Source of the DNA: an uncultured virus (IMG/VR IMGVR_UViG_3300030376_005322)
Lineage: Duplodnaviria > Heunggongvirae > Uroviricota > Caudoviricetes
Length of the DNA stretch: 64,000 nucleotides
Virus record (IMG/VR): IMGVR_UViG_3300030376_005322
Direction: 5' to 3' (one strand)
Positions 2,867 to 49,930 of the stretch are shown in pieces (position 1 is the stretch's first letter; every line of letters begins with the position of its first letter). The translations under genes were made by a program, and so were the position numbers. The notes under the pieces were generated by a model, which saw only the letters and a program-made list of their open reading frames with translations, made no database searches and was not told the DNA's origin.

Positions 2867-5800
2867 TTATGATTCCAAAGCGGAAAGTCGTGTTTCCATT
2901 TCTTGGATGGCTTTAACTATTGGCGCAATCAACTCTGTGTATCTAATTCCCTGAGTGTTTCCTGCTTCAACAGTTACCTTAGATTTCCCATCAGGGTCTC
3001 CTGATTCTATATCTGCGTGTTTCCAATGTTCTTCTTTATCGTATGCCCCATCTATCCACAGTGCAGTAGAAGATGCATCATCACCAAGTAAAGTTTCTAC
3101 CTCTTGGGCTATAAAGCCATGATGCTTTCTCGCACCATCTCTTCCAGTAGCGCCTTCTTTCCAAGTGAAAGAGACAGGTCTTAACCCTTTTATGAAGTCT
3201 AAACCAAGAGAGGCATTTTGAATATCATCTTTCAAATTTACATCCGAAGTAGTTACTCCACTCTTAGCGTAAACATCGTCCCAATATTTACTTGTGGAAC
3301 CGAGGTCTGCCCCATGCCAATCTCCAGCACTAAAACTAGCAGTAGATGCAGGGACTATACTTCCTGTGCTTGTTATCCCGCCAAGGCAAGTAATGTCTGA
3401 TACAATATAAGCCCAACCATTAACATATGCCTTTATACCAAACCCACCGGGAGCAGCAGAATCGCTACCCACTACAAGGTTGTGCTTTATTCTGATGTCT
3501 CCCCACACATCAAGAATGTCGTTAAGAGAAGCGCCGCCACCCTCTAAATTGAAAAACATATTAGAAGTACTTTGCATTCTAACATGAGGTGAGTTCCCTG
3601 TATTTTGAAGAACAATATAATTATCTTTTGCATTGTTATACATGCCAAGCCCGCTATAAGAGAACCCACCAAAAGAACCTGAGCCGTAATTTATTGACCC
3701 GAAAGCATCATCGTCACTTGTGGTCCCAAATTTTATTGAAGAACTGACGGACGTACTTGTATTAAAAGTCACTCGTGCAGTTCCAGAACCCTTAAAGACA
3801 TAAGAACTGCCGGGGAATGTGCCGCTAGCGATATCAGCACCAGTAATTGTTAAAGCATTAACATCAATTCTTGCCGCATCGATTGTACCGGAAGTTATAT
3901 TGTCAGCATTCAGATTAGTGATCGTGACAGTGCTTGCATTAATAGTACCAGCCGTTATTTTGCTGGCATTCAAATTAGGAATCCTGTCAGCATTGAATGT
4001 GCCAATATGCGCTTTAGACGCATCTATAGTTCCACGGAAAGTACCGTTTTCAAACTCGACGCTTCCATCGGCTTTAATAACCCACCCTGCGCTACCGGGA
4101 TTGTAATTCGATGACGCTACATGGCCGCTAACAATAGTGACGTTAAAAGAACTCAAATTAAATTCAGACTCGGTGCTCCAAGCAGATTTTCGTTGGTCTC
4201 TGTTAACGCTTCTTACTTTTGCTTTATATTTACCGTCTGGTCGTCCTAACCCATTGACCATTACGCTAGTGCCCCCAGTTTTAATCCTTACCGGGTCATC
4301 GTTATAGGTCACATCAGACCCAGAAGTATCTTTACCTCTATAGTCAGTTGAACCATCTGCACGTTTCCCTGTTGGTGCTACTTCAACCTCAAAATGTTCA
4401 ATAAGGTTTTCTTGTTTAGCAGGTGTATTCCAACCAACAAGCACACCAGAGTTAAACGGTCCACCTTCTTTAGTGACCGAAGTAATCGAGTCTGGCGGGT
4501 CAGGTATCCTTCCTGCCTTAAAATCGACCAGATCAATCTGGTCAGAGTATTGGCCTGTGCCTTCTTTCTTTTGTATCCGTCGAAGCACCCCGTCGATTAC
4601 GTCACCGATGACTACTTCTGTCCGAACTTCGTCAGGAGTCAGCGCTAAACCTAAACCAACGATTTGCCGGTCTTGCGTTACCCCTGCTTCGTATTCGATC
4701 TTTACTGTGTCGCCGGGAACAAAATCAATCCATGCTCTAGTCGTATCTGTTTCTATATATTGGAAGGTGTATTCATCTAATGGGTCTTTGACTGAATCTA
4801 AAGCCTGTTTCGCTGCGTCAGCGTTAGATTGCCCATCAGCGTGCTGGTGTCCTATGAACCCTTCACGCCTACCAAAGGCGCTTACTTGCGAAGTATTTTT
4901 TTGGCTCTCTATGGTGAACCCATTTGAAGCGAACATAAACGTTCTTAAATCTGGGCGGCGTAACGACCTTGAAGAAGAAGTCGCATTAGGAATAGTCAAA
5001 AGAATTGTGGTCGATCTATCTGTACCTAATGTTTTAGAAATAAAGATAACACCAGAAGCGTTCACATACCATTGAGCGTTAGAAGTAACAGCACACAGTT
5101 GATTGAGAGCGTCAAGATAAGTTATGCCAGACGGGATTTCAAATAAATAATTAACTTCATCAGTAGGATACGTTGCAGTAGTTGTCCATGTTGTTCCGTT
5201 AGAGTCTTCATTTGTTAAAGGCGCTAACGCTTGGCTTCCGCTCCCTGACCAGCCAGTTAATAATTGTGCAGAAAGGCTTAGTGGCCAATCAACAGGATCG
5301 CCGTTTCTGTCCGCTGACCCATGTGCATAATTAGTCCAAGTTTGATTTACCCCATTGTCTGCTTCCTTAAATAAGAAAGTAAACGCAGCGCCACCATAGG
5401 CTTTGAATTTAGGGTTATCTATTGAATGAGCACCAGAGTCGAGTTCAGCAGTAGTTTCATGCGTTTTTCCGAACCCGCGTGAAACGTTAACAACGTTCGC
5501 ATCAGGATCGCTAGTGTTCCCTTCGTCCCAGTTTTCTGGGAGAACAACAGCCCATTCTAAACAAGCCGCCAACCCACGCCCTTGCATAACAACTAGGCGC
5601 TGATCCCCAGAATATTGAACATCTGAGTTCTCTATCAAAAACGTTGCTATAGCAGTTCCGTTTCTAACAACCTGAACAGCGAAATTTCCTTCCCACGGAT
5701 ATTTACTGCCGTTGTTTGTGTAAAAGTCTGCGAGCATAGGGTCGTCGAAATCCATTTCGAGAGACCCGCCACCAACATCATTTATCACATCAGTGACTTG

Positions 5801-5887
5801 TACGGCAATATAACTAGGGACGAACGCTACTGTCGCCAACGTTGTTGCGTTGACGATCTTTACATCCCATGCCGAATCTACGGCCAT
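2867..5887 (-). CDS. tail tip/hub (Tal-like) protein with FN3-like domain and C-terminal peptidase S74 chaperone
   Basis: Follows Dit. FN3-like segment (VGWNTP...YKAKVRSVN), I-x-A-x-x-I-T-x-G-T-I repeats, C-terminal 'SDVNLKDDI...LRPVSFTW...GFIAQEVE...YTELIAPIVKAIQE'. Confidence 0.85.
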   Translation of the reverse strand: MAVDSAWDVKIVNATTLATVAFVPSYIAVQVTDVINDVGGGSLEMDFDDPMLADFYTNNGSKYPWEGNFAVQVVRNGTAIATFLIENSDVQYSGDQRLVVMQGRGLAACLEWAVVLPENWDEGNTSDPDANVVNVSRGFGKTHETTAELDSGAHSIDNPKFKAYGGAAFTFLFKEADNGVNQTWTNYAHGSADRNGDPVDWPLSLSAQLLTGWSGSGSQALAPLTNEDSNGTTWTTTATYPTDEVNYLFEIPSGITYLDALNQLCAVTSNAQWYVNASGVIFISKTLGTDRSTTILLTIPNATSSSRSLRRPDLRTFMFASNGFTIESQKNTSQVSAFGRREGFIGHQHADGQSNADAAKQALDSVKDPLDEYTFQYIETDTTRAWIDFVPGDTVKIEYEAGVTQDRQIVGLGLALTPDEVRTEVVIGDVIDGVLRRIQKKEGTGQYSDQIDLVDFKAGRIPDPPDSITSVTKEGGPFNSGVLVGWNTPAKQENLIEHFEVEVAPTGKRADGSTDYRGKDTSGSDVTYNDDPVRIKTGGTSVMVNGLGRPDGKYKAKVRSVNRDQRKSAWSTESEFNLSSFNVTIVSGHVASSNYNPGSAGWVIKADGSVEFENGTFRGTIDASKAHIGTFNADRIPNLNASKITAGTINASTVTITNLNADNITSGTIDAARIDVNALTITGADIASGTFPGSSYVFKGSGTARVTFNTSTSVSSSIKFGTTSDDDAFGSINYGSGSFGGFSYSGLGMYNNAKDNYIVLQNTGNSPHVRMQSTSNMFFNLEGGGASLNDILDVWGDIRIKHNLVVGSDSAAPGGFGIKAYVNGWAYIVSDITCLGGITSTGSIVPASTASFSAGDWHGADLGSTSKYWDDVYAKSGVTTSDVNLKDDIQNASLGLDFIKGLRPVSFTWKEGATGRDGARKHHGFIAQEVETLLGDDASSTALWIDGAYDKEEHWKHADIESGDPDGKSKVTVEAGNTQGIRYTELIAPIVKAIQEMETRLSALES

Positions 5888-6816
5888 TAGATATATGCCT
5901 TCGAGTACGTTATTACAACGTTTGCATTGGTTTTCTTATCGATCTCATTTACGATACCGGGTCGTAACTCGAACCAGTCGAGAGTGGTAGAGCCAGTACG
6001 ATCAACGCTTCCTGTCGGATAAGTCGTAGCATTGCCATCTGAGACATCAACAAGAGTCGCCGTGTACGCTTCTGTGTCGAAAGTTATATGATCGCCGTCA
6101 TCAAGAGTTCCGTTCCAAGTTAATTTACTTCCAGTTGTTGCGTTCTGTACCCAAGGGTTAGCAACGCTTGCCCCAACAGCAGTTAATTTGATAGTCATTC
6201 GAGTCGTCACTGCTGTACCACCGGGGTCAGCATCCGCATCAGAACCACCACCACTCTGCATAGTCGAAGCAGTTTTAACGCCTGCCGAATTGCATTCATA
6301 CCAGCGAGGGTCAAGATAATCGACACTCGCTGTAAACCGAACATAATTAAAGTCAGATTCCGCAATCTTTATCGGACTCACAACCTCACCATAATTAACT
6401 CGATACGAGTCTGCTGGGCTAGCAGCATTTGATTGTAATTTTTTAACAACCATTAAAGGAGCGTCATAGCCAGAAGCCTTATGACTGGTGTAAAGCAATC
6501 CTTTTACTTCATCTAAATTAGCGTTCAACTGTGCGAGTTGTTGCTTCTGCCCAGTCGTAGTTGGTGTACCTGTTCCGCTCCAAGTAGGTGGGTAAACAGT
6601 CCCATCTGCTTTAGCGTCACAAACCCACATCATCCATTGTTCGTTGTTCTTACCTAACCTTTTCTGTCGCCAACTTCCACCATGTGCCATCGCTGGAACT
6701 AAATTGCTTCCACGCCACATAGGGGTGCCTGCCGTAACAGACTCTATATTGAAACGCGGGTCAGAGAGTTCTGTGCCGTTAACTGAAATTGATTCTACCC
6801 ATCCAAATGCTGTCAT
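5887..6816 (-). CDS. distal tail protein (Dit-like)
   Basis: Immediately after tape measure; 'DPRWY' and 'WFELRPG.NEI' motifs typical of siphovirus Dit. Confidence 0.75.
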   Translation of the reverse strand: MTAFGWVESISVNGTELSDPRFNIESVTAGTPMWRGSNLVPAMAHGGSWRQKRLGKNNEQWMMWVCDAKADGTVYPPTWSGTGTPTTTGQKQQLAQLNANLDEVKGLLYTSHKASGYDAPLMVVKKLQSNAASPADSYRVNYGEVVSPIKIAESDFNYVRFTASVDYLDPRWYECNSAGVKTASTMQSGGGSDADADPGGTAVTTRMTIKLTAVGASVANPWVQNATTGSKLTWNGTLDDGDHITFDTEAYTATLVDVSDGNATTYPTGSVDRTGSTTLDWFELRPGIVNEIDKKTNANVVITYSKAYI

Positions 6817-11178: not shown

Positions 11179-11547
11179 TCATTCAACTTTTTCAGAGAAT
11201 TCTTTAATTATTTCTTCAGAGGGAGCAGTTTCTACAGACATTCCACCTAAAGCCGAAGCCCAGCCTAGTAACTCTGTTTGAGATTTAGGTTTCTTTTTGA
11301 CTTCAGGGCGACTACACGCAGCAATAAGTTGAGCGGGAGAAGCATCCCAAAAAGAAGAAAGAGGTTGGTGGACTTGACACCAAGCATAAATTGCTTGGTC
11401 CCACGGGTAGTTCCCTAATCCGTCTTCTCTTCCGCTTCCATCTCGTCTAGGCTCTTTACCAATTCGTCGTTCAGCACTGTCATCTGCGAGTCCGCCGCCG
11501 CTTCCGCTTGTTTTAGTAGGCGACTCGCTGTTGTGGGGTCCACGCCG
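11179..11547 (-). CDS. tail assembly chaperone, frameshift extension (gpT-like)
   Basis: -1 frame relative to 11415..11915 is open from 11547 to TGA 11179 and encodes ...YPWDQAIYAWCQVHQPLSSFWDASPAQLIAA...; no plausible own start; classical position before TMP. Confidence 0.7.
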   Translation of the reverse strand, partial: RRGPHNSESPTKTSGSGGGLADDSAERRIGKEPRRDGSGREDGLGNYPWDQAIYAWCQVHQPLSSFWDASPAQLIAACSRPEVKKKPKSQTELLGWASALGGMSVETAPSEEIIKEFSEKVE

Positions 11548-11915
11548 TTAGCGATAGCCCATGCGACGCCAACCGCACCACTGTAATCTGTGAGTCTCCC
11601 TTCCAACATGCGTAAACCAACTTTCTCAGTACTCTCTGAAAGAAGTAATGAGAAAGTTCGGCGCATTGAAGAAACAGGCTTTTCTTCCATCTGTTCCTGC
11701 CAATTTGGTAAACCATCCCACAATTCTTCGATATCAGCAATCGAATTATGGGTAAAGCGAACATAAAACTCTTCGGTTTCCTGTTTGCCTTCGGCATCAT
11801 ATATGGGCACCCATTTGCCGTCTTCTTCTCGAAGAGTCGCAATCTGCACAGGCACGCCTTTGTTTTTAAGTACTAACGGTGAATAATCCATACCTGTAGT
11901 GTACAACGCATTCAT
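11415..11915 (-). CDS. tail assembly chaperone (gpG-like)
   Basis: Between major tail protein and TMP; overlapping -1 ORF downstream. Confidence 0.8.
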   Translation of the reverse strand: MNALYTTGMDYSPLVLKNKGVPVQIATLREEDGKWVPIYDAEGKQETEEFYVRFTHNSIADIEELWDGLPNWQEQMEEKPVSSMRRTFSLLLSESTEKVGLRMLEGRLTDYSGAVGVAWAIANGVDPTTASRLLKQAEAAADSQMTVLNDELVKSLDEMEAEEKTD

Positions 11916-12652: not shown

Positions 12653-15600
12653 TTATTCCTGTACGTCTATTATGAGTTTGTACCAGCCTGTTGTCCCTGC
12701 ACTATAAACCTTTGGTTTGACTGTATAAGTACCAGCGGTCAACTCTCTTGTTATTAAAGAGTCCCAGCAGTTCCCGTCACTAGGGCAGTTGTTCCCACAT
12801 GAGCAGCCGTCATCATCGTCTTTTTCTATCAAGTTCCCGTTGCTGTCATAAAGATAAATGTATGGGTCTCCATATTCATCTTCCTCATTATTAGCGTCAC
12901 CGGGCCAGCCATCACAAGTCAATTCTGTTTCAGCCCGTATTACAACAGTTGTTGTTTCCGTGAGTGTGAATGTGACTGAATCTTCGTCGTTGGTAAAGTT
13001 CTCAATGTCTGCGATACAGAAGTCTCCAAACCCTGTCCATACAGTATTGTTGCCTCCTGTTAAAGCGCAGTCGTTAGACCATGAAGATGTTGAAGTCGAA
13101 ACATCAGTTACGTTATATGCGTCAGAATATGTTGTTTCAACAAAACCATCACTCCATATAACTTCAGTGATGTCTGTGTATGTAGTTACAGTTGTTTCAG
13201 TGGTGGTTATGTAATCATGCCAATAACCATCAGTGGCTTCACTCGTAACTGTCTCCGTACTCGTAGTCATATTCTGAGCATCCTGCCTCTGGGTAACAGA
13301 AGCAGTACCCGGAGTTGCACACCCACTCGGTTTGTCCGCTGTCATATTCATCATATTCATAGGACTCATCATCATCATATTCATAGGACTCATCATCAGA
13401 CTCGTAGACATCATCCCCCCAGTCCCACTCCTCCTCGGATTCCTCACCATAATCCCCTGATTCGTCTGACCCGTATAATCCTCCCTCCAGATGCACTCCC
13501 GATCCGTCGCTATCAGTTCCGTTACTTCCTCCATATCCGTCCCAGTCGTAATAACTGTCGTCACTTCCGTCACTGAATCCCCCCAAATAGTCTCCGTCGT
13601 GATCTCCCCCCCCGTATTCCAAGTCTGGATTATCCCAGTCGAATTCTCCGTCTCCATAAAAGTCATGTAAGTCGTCAGAGTCGTGAAAACTGTCGTCCTC
13701 CAAATCTCCGTCATCGTCCCGCCCTCGTCCATAAAAGTCTGGGTGTTGGTTGTAAAGGTACTGGTCGTATTCGGAGTAACTGTAGTCCAAGTCCGAATCG
13801 GTAAACTCCTCTGAATCGTCTCCGTACTCACCAGAATAGGGGTCGTAATAACCCCACTCGCTAAAGGGTCGTCATCACCCCAATCATCCCATTCTTCTTC
13901 TTCTCGAAACCATTCCTCGTCATAGTTCACCTCTTCCCAATATTCATCTTCCCAATATTCATCATCTATATCTAAAAGAACATCTGTTAAAGATTCTTCA
14001 GTCTCCCAATATTCTTCTTCCTCATATTCTTCAACCCAAGATTCGCCTAAGACTTCTTCTAATCTCCCCTCGCTGACAGCGATAAAATACTCAGCATCTG
14101 TAGCGACCCAAGATTCGATCTCGTCTTCCTCTTGAATAATTTCCCCAGATTCTTCGTCGTAGTCGATCTCTACAACAAGAGGAGGGGGCTCTATCTCACC
14201 TTCATCGTCTCCTTCTTCAAGGATGTATAAAGAAAGATCGATTTCTATTTCTGCGAGAGACTCCCCATCTTCGCTCCTAACCCCAATGTCCATTGTTTCT
14301 GGTTCGTCTTCTAAAGTTTCAGCATCATCTGAAGAGAACTGAACTTCAATTTCTTGTCCTTCGTCTAACTGGATTTCTGCTTCGAGAGCATCGATGGCAA
14401 TAGAGACTGTTGCTTCAGAAGCGTCACCGATCTCTAACGAATCTTCAGAGAAGTTAACTAGCGATTCTTCTTCTTCTCCTTCTACCAACTCTTCTTCTTC
14501 AGGTTCTTCCTCTAAGACTGCTTCAACCTGTAGTGATCTTTCTTCATCGAGAATTAGTAACGAGAACCGTTCTTGTGTGTCGTTACTTGCTGGAGTTCCT
14601 GTAGAAGTTCCTGAATCTAAAACCTTTACGTCGGCAGAGAAAGTTTCTACCGTCGCTGGTAAAGAAACAAGAACAGGGTCTGCTGTAGAAGGACCTGATA
14701 TTAAATACCTGAAAGTAGCACCCGGAATCTCGTTAATGAACTGCCCGTCGTAATACCCGATTCTTTGACCGTCGCTAGTTTCAACTTGGAGGCTTGCTTG
14801 CTTCTGCCCTGAAGAAGCAACCGTAAGAAGTGTCCCTGATTTTGCGTCTCCCTCTGTTGGGCAGAACGGGCAACTAAAAGGTGGCTTTCTGGAAGTCATA
14901 GGTGTGAGTTCCATAGTCCCAGCGCCACCCGACCAAGCAGAAGCCTCTTCTGAAGGGTTCACAGCGGCAAGAGCATATATCCAGCCGTCTTCGTTTACGT
15001 CTATCCATCGTTCTTGGTTGGGCCAGTTCGAGTCGTAAATAAAGATTCTATATCCTTCAGAGTTTTGCTCAACCCTGTATGGCGTGACAGCATGTCCTCC
15101 TTCATCGGAGTAAATGCCTACGGTGAAACCATTTGCTTGCCCGCCGGATTCAGATTCTTGAAAGTCTTCCATCAAGATGCGAGCCAAATCTAATGGTTCC
15201 ATTTGTCTGTAAACTGAAGCCCTTTCTTGAACTTCAGGTGCGAATTGTGAAACGTACCAGAACGCTAATTCGCTTAACAGAGCAGGGTCGTCTTTGACTA
15301 ACTCTGCGACTGTTTGTACCTGTTGAAAATTCTGGATAGTTGAAACATCACCAGATAATCTCAAACTCAATACTGCTAACCCCTCACACAAACCGCCTTT
15401 CATGGATCGGTTTGCCTGAGCGATCAACTGTAAAATCACAGGGAACGGGGTGCATTGGTTATCGACTACTGACTGGCAGGCTTGCTCATCGCCATACATT
15501 CTGCGAGCCATGTTTACTGTCAGGTCTGCTGGAGGTTCTCCTCCTCCGAAGTTCTCAAAAGAAAAAGCATCGTTACCGGGAGTGAAAGGTATCTCCCACT

Positions 15601-15733
15601 GTTCAGTAGGTAACCCTAAATCTAAAGTTGTTGCTTGGACAGGTTGAGTTACCTGTGGTTCTTCAATTTTCGCCTTCCCTGAGCAGGCAACCCCTAATAA
15701 TGAGAGGATGAGGATTCCCGCCAAGGCCCTCAT
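12653..15733 (-). CDS. large acidic putative lipoprotein with Thr-rich repeats and C-terminal PPC-like domain
   Basis: Lipobox LGVAC after a hydrophobic signal. Possible papain-like Cys/His/Asp motifs (GLCEG, GGHAV, IYDSN). C-terminal 'DPYIYLYDSNGNLIEKDDD...LTAGTYTV' resembles a bacterial pre-peptidase C-terminal domain. Confidence 0.7.
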   Translation of the reverse strand: MRALAGILILSLLGVACSGKAKIEEPQVTQPVQATTLDLGLPTEQWEIPFTPGNDAFSFENFGGGEPPADLTVNMARRMYGDEQACQSVVDNQCTPFPVILQLIAQANRSMKGGLCEGLAVLSLRLSGDVSTIQNFQQVQTVAELVKDDPALLSELAFWYVSQFAPEVQERASVYRQMEPLDLARILMEDFQESESGGQANGFTVGIYSDEGGHAVTPYRVEQNSEGYRIFIYDSNWPNQERWIDVNEDGWIYALAAVNPSEEASAWSGGAGTMELTPMTSRKPPFSCPFCPTEGDAKSGTLLTVASSGQKQASLQVETSDGQRIGYYDGQFINEIPGATFRYLISGPSTADPVLVSLPATVETFSADVKVLDSGTSTGTPASNDTQERFSLLILDEERSLQVEAVLEEEPEEEELVEGEEEESLVNFSEDSLEIGDASEATVSIAIDALEAEIQLDEGQEIEVQFSSDDAETLEDEPETMDIGVRSEDGESLAEIEIDLSLYILEEGDDEGEIEPPPLVVEIDYDEESGEIIQEEDEIESWVATDAEYFIAVSEGRLEEVLGESWVEEYEEEEYWETEESLTDVLLDIDDEYWEDEYWEEVNYDEEWFREEEEWDDWGDDDPLASGVITTPILVSTETIQRSLPIRTWTTVTPNTTSTFTTNTQTFMDEGGTMTEIWRTTVFTTLTTYMTFMETENSTGIIQTWNTGGEITTETIWGDSVTEVTTVITTGTDMEEVTELIATDRECIWREDYTGQTNQGIMVRNPRRSGTGGMMSTSLMMSPMNMMMMSPMNMMNMTADKPSGCATPGTASVTQRQDAQNMTTSTETVTSEATDGYWHDYITTTETTVTTYTDITEVIWSDGFVETTYSDAYNVTDVSTSTSSWSNDCALTGGNNTVWTGFGDFCIADIENFTNDEDSVTFTLTETTTVVIRAETELTCDGWPGDANNEEDEYGDPYIYLYDSNGNLIEKDDDDGCSCGNNCPSDGNCWDSLITRELTAGTYTVKPKVYSAGTTGWYKLIIDVQE

Positions 15734-15735
15734 GG

Positions 15736-16155
15736 TTAACGTCTTCGGCGTTTTTGATAAATATAAAGAAGGGCGATAAATAACATGACGCCACCAGCAA
15801 TAAGTATCAGAGTTATCGAACCTGAAGTTGTCGATGGGTCGAGACTAAAGTTTTTAGTCCCCCCTCCTAATAGGTCATTCCCGACTTGTAGTTCTGCTAC
15901 TGCTTCTTCTAGTTGTGCTACTTGATCCTGTAAGGCTGCTTCTTCTGCGCTTGATTCCCATAAGAAACCGAATGCTCCAGTTATCGCTGCCGGTAACCCC
16001 AGTATGTAAGCGATGTTGTCTTTGATTTTGTCAACGATCCCTACAGCGGAGTCTGTTTTTTCTTTTATACTTTTTGAAGGCGTGTCGCCTCCTGTTGTCA
16101 GCATTGCTTCTTGTAGATGATGTAATGCTTTACCTAAATGTTCTGATTCGCTCAT
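15736..16155 (-). CDS. membrane protein
   Basis: Two hydrophobic segments and basic C-terminal tail KRRRR. Confidence 0.65.
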   Translation of the reverse strand: MSESEHLGKALHHLQEAMLTTGGDTPSKSIKEKTDSAVGIVDKIKDNIAYILGLPAAITGAFGFLWESSAEEAALQDQVAQLEEAVAELQVGNDLLGGGTKNFSLDPSTTSGSITLILIAGGVMLFIALLYIYQKRRRR

Positions 16156-49855: not shown

Positions 49856-49930
49856 TGGTGACCCTAGAGAGAATTGAACTCTCGTTTCCAACTTGAAAGG
49901 CTAGCGTATTATCCACTATACGATAGGGCC
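49856..49930 (-). tRNA. tRNA-Glu (TTC), CCA encoded
   Basis: GGCCCTA acceptor stem, D arm, anticodon loop CT-TTC-AA, T arm GAGAG-TTCAATT-CTCTC, 3' ACCA. Confidence 0.9.

Follow-up and report, generated by a model that had tools for sequence, protein, structure and literature searches.

Can one phage gene specify two proteins that share an N-terminal part and end differently? The question is raised by a stretch of 64,000 nucleotides from an uncultured marine phage (IMG/VR record IMGVR_UViG_3300030376_005322), the whole of which we call the window. Its minus strand carries the gene 12653..15733, translated in frame 0 by the listing of open reading frames (ORFs) as a lipoprotein-like protein of 1026 aa. 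Over a segment of about 630 nt, opening at the slippery sequence CCCTTTA, the −1 frame of this gene is open as well. An earlier note on this DNA had proposed that programmed −1 ribosomal frameshifting (PRF) at the heptamer yields an acidic isoform of ~831 aa beside the 1026-aa form, and had named compensating indels as the alternative. The proposal is supported by conservation of the heptamer and by signs of selection in both frames. We consider it very probable that the −1 frame is translated, and likely, though with less assurance, that it is reached by −1 PRF at the heptamer, giving the 831-aa isoform alongside the 1026-aa form.

The heptamer and the −1 frame

On the minus strand frame 0 reads GAC CCT TTA at 13870-13862, which places CCCTTTA (13868-13862) in X_XXY_YYZ phase. 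TGA at 13872-13874 lies just upstream in the −1 frame, which is then open for 210 codons to 13239; these elements, and the acidic text that the earlier note had quoted from them, are confirmed. A shift at the heptamer would join 624 residues of frame 0 to 207 of the −1 frame, giving 831 aa. The shifted tail is rich in Asp, Gly, Tyr, Glu and Ser (72 Asp or Glu, 30 Tyr and 31 Gly), with two Arg and neither Lys nor Met. Over the other 816 codons of the gene the −1 frame is interrupted by 69 stops; the +1 frame contains 83, its longest open run being 64.

Could the −1 frame be open merely as a by-product of frame-0 composition, or of a constraint at the nucleotide level, and remain untranslated? 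The genetic code gives some ground for this, as Thr codons (ACN) read as NAC in the −1 frame and so specify Asp, Tyr, Asn or His; a Thr- and Met-rich frame 0 would automatically give Asp/Tyr-rich text. Chance openness was assessed by shuffles in which the frame-0 protein was kept, with either synonymous permutation within the segment or draws from the codon usage of the rest of the gene (20,000 each). The −1 frame was open in 0/20,000 permutations (mean 10.4 stops) and in 0/20,000 draws (mean 8.5 stops, minimum 1). The openness of the segment thus exceeds chance, even with protein and codon usage kept. Codon choice is moreover skewed exactly toward the avoidance of −1 stops. Third-position G is found in 107/210 codons of the segment compared with 134/816 elsewhere in the gene, and Thr is encoded by ACG in 25/52 compared with 4/65. 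None of the 51 frame-0 codons that start with AA, AG or GA is preceded by a codon ending in T, though T occupies 69/210 third positions. The extent of the antisense ORF over the segment, 119 aa in the window and 213 aa in L004 (a relative of 76% identity), is not conserved, which also speaks against a general constraint. The antisense ORFs themselves were rejected as coding; they are a passive result of the scarcity of Leu and Ser codons.

Conservation, selection and the route into the −1 frame

Is frame 0 itself genuine through the segment? Among 8000 scored candidates we found 55 related proteins; for 38 of these the coverage of residues 560-1026 is 84% or higher, and the identity 37-97%. 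In an alignment of 28 sequences the invariant frame-0 residues inside the segment include D621, P623, P632, D669, G672, T673, T675, E676, W678 and K801-P808. From these 38 homologues, the invariant residues and a predicted local distance difference test (pLDDT) score of 81-91 in the structural model, we conclude that frame 0 is genuinely coding here. This bears directly on the suggestion of compensating indels or an assembly error, whereby the true protein would leave frame 0 for the −1 frame and later return to it. The −1 text is acidic in the manner of the frame-0 region before it, as such a reading would have it, but frame 0 is conserved through the segment in all full-length homologues and is predicted to be folded, and for this reason we reject the idea. 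Further, the −1 frame ends in a stop, and no slippery signal is present for a return to frame 0.

Independent assemblies agree with this. The stretch is held by 17 sequencing runs at no less than half of the sampled words, with 20 rows from 18 studies holding any part of it. No indel is found in the contigs of three further DNA runs, which come from other studies: X2 record 4 has no differences over 13100-13981, and the records of X3 and X4 that cover the site have substitutions and no gaps. An RNA-labelled run (X18), whose contigs cover the stretch in part, bears on neither transcription nor shifting. The same frame structure is seen in the IMG/VR and the metagenome loci. An indel origin is therefore extremely improbable.

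How general are the heptamer and the open −1 frame? Homologue loci numbered 116 in two scans of viral sequences and one of metagenomes; from these, 26 distinct segments were counted, each having both anchors, i.e. the shift-site position and the motif KPSGCATP. The heptamer is present in phase in 19 of these, as CCCTTTA or CCCTTTT. From the site onward, 17 of these 19 have 145-230 open codons in the −1 frame, compared with 7-32 stops in the +1 frame over the same span, and in 17 of the 19 a −1-frame stop precedes the proline codon by 3-9 nt. In shuffles performed locus by locus, 16 of the 19 reach P(≤observed) <0.01 under one or both schemes. Both frames are open in the clade of the window and in several lineages that have 41-55% identity to it in the C-terminal part. 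When computed from the codon usage of each lineage with the protein given, the probability of the heptamer is 0.004-0.13 per lineage; where GC-rich lineages retain it, TTA makes up only 3-7% of their Leu codons. Thus the heptamer is conserved at synonymous sites, against codon usage. On a tree constructed from the downstream domain its state changes just twice, having been lost about twice.

The seven segments that lack the heptamer are varied. The −1 frame is closed in L011 and closes after 84 codons in L113, while its openness is marginal in L032 (P 0.05-0.14). In L035, L096 and L095, with DNA of 65-67% GC, it is open at the level of chance (P 0.1-0.5, a range into which the GC-rich L113 also falls), as the by-product explanation would expect. 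The seventh, L109, is considered below.

If the −1 frame is translated, how is it entered? It might be a separate embedded gene with its own internal start, like Rz1 within Rz, for example from the TTG at 13790 (183 aa). Such a TTG ORF is present in the ORF listing of the window, an ATG stands in its place in the L004 clade, and one gene caller called an internal ORF of 134 aa in a relative (P0057). However, the −1 ORF of the window contains no ATG, and the TTG and ATG positions coincide with conserved Trp codons of frame 0. A Shine-Dalgarno (SD)-like motif precedes the first ATG, GTG or TTG in 0 of 11 lineages. The 23-59 start-less codons that follow the heptamer are open in all lineages (a joint chance of 2.3e-5 over six if these were independent, weakened by their shared ancestry), and an embedded gene leaves the synonymous conservation of the heptamer without explanation. 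We regard an internal start as unlikely.

Another recoding route, by transcriptional slippage or a shift at some other nearby site, would be in keeping with the open −1 frames of L109 and L032, which lack the heptamer, and with the failure to find a stimulatory structure. Against this, homopolymer runs near the site are never longer than 3-4 nt, there is no second in-phase heptamer in the gene and none in the heptamer-less relatives, and the −1 stops so close upstream of the proline codon leave almost no alternative point of entry. Such a route is quite unlikely. With stops 3-9 nt upstream, no plausible internal start and no homopolymer, tandem −1 slippage on C_CCU_UUA would be the simplest way into the frame.

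Does selection act in both frames? For aligned codons we compared the proportion differing at each frame-0 position between the segment and its flanks (Fisher's test), taking separately the two parts of the overlap, regions A and B (Table 1). Between the window and L004, third-position change in region A is reduced to 0.34 (43/128) from 0.58 and 0.53 in the flanks (223/403; p = 1.9e-5), and positions 1 and 2 are unchanged. In region B most of the change is at frame-0 position 2, which is position 3 of the −1 frame; here the fraction is 0.46, compared with 0.10-0.12 in the flanks (p = 8.5e-9). A second pair, L031 and L037, gives 0.32 (41/127) for position 3 in region A against 0.62 and 0.53 in the flanks (229/394; p = 4.5e-7), together with 0.28 against 0.15 for position 2 (p = 0.002). 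Suppression at the third position is absent from both control pairs. For L011 and L013, where the −1 frame is closed, position 3 in region A gives 0.40 (flanks 0.35 and 0.56; p = 0.36), and for L035 and L096, where it is open at chance level only, 0.14 (flanks 0.15 and 0.08; p = 0.54). The suppressed change at position 3 and the excess at position 2 argue against an untranslated by-product.

Four relatives (L034, L038, L092 and L105) have an insert in the frame-0 linker that, read in the −1 frame, encodes a conserved mini-domain with Cys, about 60 aa long. Between L034 and L038 the insert is the best-conserved DNA of the gene, with 30/210 nt changed compared with 430/1164 in the flanks (p = 1.4e-11), and in region B the amino acid difference is 0.17 in the −1 frame and 0.26 in frame 0. 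A comparison of L038 with the distant L105 gives a −1-frame alignment of 66 residues, 30 of them identical (45%; 53.9 bits); the frame-0 alignment extends over only 49 residues (30.8 bits), from the end of region A, which is conserved, into the beginning of the linker. The −1 peptides of six relatives have no Pfam match, and a full HMMER search with the mini-domain returned only two proteins, P0057, which is the ORF itself as annotated by a gene caller, and P0058, a repeat protein unrelated to it, with no free-standing relative. Two close relatives of L038, L013 (3348..3566) and L093 (832..1053), have kept the heptamer and lack the linker insert, and their −1 frame looks like one that has decayed following loss of the −1 module. 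Conservation of the mini-domain in the −1 frame alone, and decay of that frame where the insert is missing, further contradict the by-product explanation, which we judge very unlikely. Taken together, the substitution patterns and the mini-domain indicate that both frames of the segment are under selection.

A number of observations weigh against frameshifting at the heptamer. For covariation of heptamer and ORF the tree offers just 1-2 independent pairs. In L013 and L093 the heptamer is present and the −1 frame closes after 72 codons, and in L034 the openness of the frame is not significant (P 0.07-0.18). Conversely L109 (1359..1964) has CCGTTA in place of the heptamer and a −1 frame that is significantly open for 201 codons (P 0.002). 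CCCTTTA by itself is not rare in the window, with 10 copies where 9.25 are expected. Downstream of the site, where the earlier note had suggested folding for a stimulatory structure, the predicted fold in the window includes a hairpin of 6 bp, but folding is not significant (z of −1.2 to −1.8 in the window clade, >0 in distant lineages, and −1.8 to +1.3 overall), and RNAalifold applied to 13 sequences gave no consensus pairs. The hairpin, at 13855-13839, is kept in L004 with one change of U·G to C-G, and is not conserved in distant lineages. Inspection by eye revealed no conserved SD sequence upstream. Lastly, in the reverse test, where the acidic −1 protein is kept, frame 0 is open in 3-11% of shuffles (P 0.03-0.11) and so is only mildly unlikely. 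Set beside the complete lack of open −1 frames in the forward shuffles and the skewed codon use, this result indicates that the composition of the segment has been shaped mainly by the −1 frame.

The −1 frame of L109 reads as Arg/Gly-rich text, an exception for which we have no explanation.

Programmed −1 frameshifting at C_CCU_UUA (13868-13862) would proceed as follows. Most ribosomes would keep frame 0 and complete the 1026-aa protein. Some would slip back by one base, the P-site tRNA-Pro moving from CCU to CCC and the A-site tRNA-Leu from UUA to UUU, and would read 207 more codons. The resulting 831-aa isoform would have the same N-terminal 624 residues, with the β-sheet and PPC module exchanged for a highly acidic Asp/Glu/Tyr/Gly tail. 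It could serve as a less abundant form without the C-terminal binding module, its amount kept in constant proportion to that of the long form. The ribosome shift at the site, its efficiency and the role of the acidic isoform are what we infer.

Tentatively, and with slightly less than even confidence, we suggest that the overlap is a partitioned dual-coding cassette. The −1 frame would be open acidic filler under the folded sheet and carry its payload under the disordered linker, with a payload specific to the lineage, a DEY-rich tail here and the Cys-containing mini-domain elsewhere. The linker would then be a cradle for overprinted, frameshift-dependent C-terminal modules, swapped by in-frame indels. 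If this is true, the phage displays two alternative tail ends of one lipoprotein, in a ratio set by the efficiency of frameshifting.

The frame-0 protein and its genomic setting

Table 1. Coordinates of features in the 12653..15733 gene, and of −1 frames ending in the mini-domain in four relatives. MFE, minimum free energy.
Feature	Sequence	Coordinates	Strand	Basis or remark
Signal-peptide-like N-terminus to conserved Cys17, lipobox-like ...GVAC	Window	15683..15733	-	Sequence, alignment
Putative papain-like cysteine-peptidase domain, residues about 105-287	Window	14873..15421	-	Invariant Cys116 and His214, weak model
Acidic Glu/Asp/Trp/Tyr-rich frame-0 region before the shift site	Window	13869..14521	-	Residues 401-624: D or E = 94/224
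TGATGA, two −1-frame stops just 5′ of the heptamer	Window	13872..13877	-	Sequence
Slippery heptamer C_CCT_TTA	Window	13862..13868	-	Sole in-phase XXXYYYZ of the whole gene
GC hairpin, 6 bp, 5-nt loop, 6 nt 3′ of the heptamer	Window	13839..13855	-	In MFE fold; candidate weak stimulator
−1-frame ORF, 210 codons and stop	Window	13239..13871	-	ORF listing; TGA at 13241-13239
Overlap region A: three ~35-residue β-strands (633-743) in frame 0, low-complexity acidic text in −1 frame	Window	13505..13837	-	pLDDT 81-91
Overlap region B: disordered, Met-rich, length-variable linker (745-804) in frame 0, DEY-rich repeats in −1 frame	Window	13322..13501	-	pLDDT 26-35
C-terminal PPC / collagen-binding-domain-like β-sandwich, reached in frame 0 only	Window	12701..13000	-	NF038127, Foldseek
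−1 frame ending in mini-domain	L034	1885..2553
−1 frame ending in mini-domain	L038	1534..2109
−1 frame ending in mini-domain	L092	561..1136
−1 frame ending in mini-domain	L105	1326..1937

The 1026-aa form comprises, in order, a putative signal sequence and lipobox, a putative papain-like domain, an Ig-like domain, the acidic region, a long Thr-rich β-sheet, the linker predicted to be disordered, and a PPC-like domain. All 30 sequences compared have Cys17, which follows a hydrophobic stretch, and L12 is nearly invariant. In the relatives the lipobox is the canonical L-S-G-C or L-T-G-C, and in the window it is G-V-A-C. On the basis of the invariant cysteine behind a hydrophobic stretch the product is a putative lipoprotein. 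Residues about 105-287 provide a lead toward a papain-like (clan CA) cysteine peptidase. In the N-terminal model (mean pLDDT 57) Cys116 is at the start of helix 115-126 and His214 is on strand 212-224. The top rows of VIA-align for this domain are staphopain C (Z 6.2), streptopain (5.4), IdeS (5.3) and interpain (5.2), where the trust level of the tool is 8, and the N-terminal model has no Foldseek match at E ≤ 0.001.

The C-terminal part, residues 601-1026, was modeled with AlphaFold using an alignment of 23 sequences (mean pLDDT 67). Past the linker it has two further long strands and then the β-sandwich, which matches NCBIfam NF038127 (PPC / DVUA0089-family) at 54.9 bits where the cut-off is 29. 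Its Foldseek matches include the collagen-binding domain (CBD) of ColH (3jqw_C; probability 1.00, TMt 0.64) and subtilase C-domains. The earlier note was therefore right that frame 0 is also open and leads to a PPC-like domain. The Thr-rich part of frame 0 is predicted to form very long antiparallel strands. Naming a fold for this sheet was attempted and rejected, as the rows for botulinum HA70/HA3, C. perfringens enterotoxin and perforin/MAC have template-modeling (TM) scores of just 0.09-0.24. These low-scoring aerolysin-like, long-hairpin matches show shared long β-hairpins, and are too weak to name the fold or to suggest a function. Neither the 1026-aa protein nor the −1 peptide has a Pfam or PHROG match, and tblastn against GenBank phages found no relative of the gene.

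The linker is a hotspot of in-frame length change. In a contig of run X4, 142 nt of it (window 13338..13481) give way to 208 others, which makes it longer by 22 codons (66 nt), and L001 has lost 8 codons in frame from the same linker. A set of long-type paralogues (L014-L030 and L039-L084; 1200-1578 aa) has the N-terminal 600 residues and the C-terminal domain in common, with much expanded Glu/Asp/Trp repeats and Pro/Thr linkers, all in frame 0 and without the KPSGCATP anchor. Their long +1 ORFs were considered as a second case and rejected, being K/R/G-rich text that looks like a by-product of the E/D/W repeats. There is a real frame break in L023, at about 3321-3490.

The window is the late region of a tailed phage, with every ORF of at least 300 aa on one strand, and has genes for portal, protease, major head, tail fibers, major tail and tape measure. 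At 11179..11915 on the minus strand is a pair resembling tail assembly chaperones, in which a 166-aa ORF (11415..11915) is followed, with overlap, by one in the −1 frame (11179..11547) whose end is immediately ahead of the tape measure gene, the usual G/GT arrangement. No canonical in-phase heptamer was seen by eye in the 130-nt overlap of this pair. This makes two distinct frameshift candidates in the window, the pair and the site in the lipoprotein gene. Gene order differs between relatives: the major tail gene follows the lipoprotein gene in the window, and in L004 its place is taken by a 236-aa ORF (5433..6143) that resembles a peptidoglycan hydrolase or endolysin, by eye only. Upstream of the gene, at 15736..16155 on the minus strand, a protein of 139 aa ends in a hydrophobic stretch and RRRR, and has a weak match to TIGR01167 (LPXTG anchor; E 0.0016, 19 bits with a cut-off of 15.9), which may hint at a Gram-positive, perhaps actinobacterial, host. 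The only tRNA of the window is tRNA-Glu (anticodon TTC; 49856..49930, minus strand); both the lipoprotein gene and its −1 tail are rich in Glu and Asp.

Comparison with known frameshift systems

The literature searched provided no description of this protein family or of the shift site. The closest phage case is the G/GT frameshift of phage lambda. Like it, the candidate described here is a −1 shift on X_XXY_YYZ in a late gene of a tailed phage, giving products with a shared N-terminus and different C-termini, probably at a fixed low ratio. The lambda G/GT frameshift is not known to need a strong stimulator. Such −1 shifts in the tail assembly chaperones of double-stranded DNA (dsDNA) phages are treated in a review (PMC5009743), and according to a survey of SEA-PHAGES genomes (PMC10885494) 2397 of the 2476 joined PRF genes are tail assembly chaperones.

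Yet the 12653..15733 gene is not a chaperone gene: its product has no PHROG or Pfam match that would make it one, and it is parted from the tape measure gene by the major tail gene and by the G/GT-like pair, which is distinct from it. Moreover, in G/GT the zero frame ends soon after the site, whereas here it runs on for about 400 codons, so that ~630 nt are dual-coded, and the shifted product would be the shorter one.

In the length of the overlap the closer parallels are found elsewhere. Alphavirus TF and influenza PA-X are transframe proteins with long dual-coded overlaps. They share with the present case selection on both frames, and suppression of change at synonymous sites of the zero frame is the diagnostic signal. 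The differences are those of a dsDNA phage, bacterial ribosomes and another class of gene. Further, in contrast to TF and PA-X the overlap appears to be partitioned, with frame 0 dominating region A and the −1 frame region B.

The identical heptamer, CCCUUUA, has been proposed for −1 frameshifting between the capsid protein (CP) and RNA-dependent RNA polymerase (RdRp) of Giardiavirus, in a paper that also questions the mechanism (PMC8230311). That is a eukaryotic double-stranded RNA virus, with a proposed downstream pseudoknot and unrelated proteins. Rz/Rz1 (PMC6139136) provides another likeness, an out-of-frame ORF inside a phage gene with a lipoprotein involved; Rz1 has its own start and lipoprotein signal, whereas the −1 frame here has neither and would depend on the upstream frame.

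What would a frameshift at this site mean? It would be a conserved −1 frameshift in a family of large secreted or lipid-anchored phage proteins unrelated to the chaperones. Gene callers annotate the 1026-aa form only, and the second product would consequently be missing from databases. The locus would offer a natural system for the study of two frames sharing sequence space (Thr/ACN with Asp-Tyr/NAC), of overprinted C-terminal modules and of isoform ratios in phages. As judged from the sequences compared here, the mechanism would be that of the known −1 PRF sites, and what appears new is the class of gene, the continuation of the zero frame and the long partitioned overlap.

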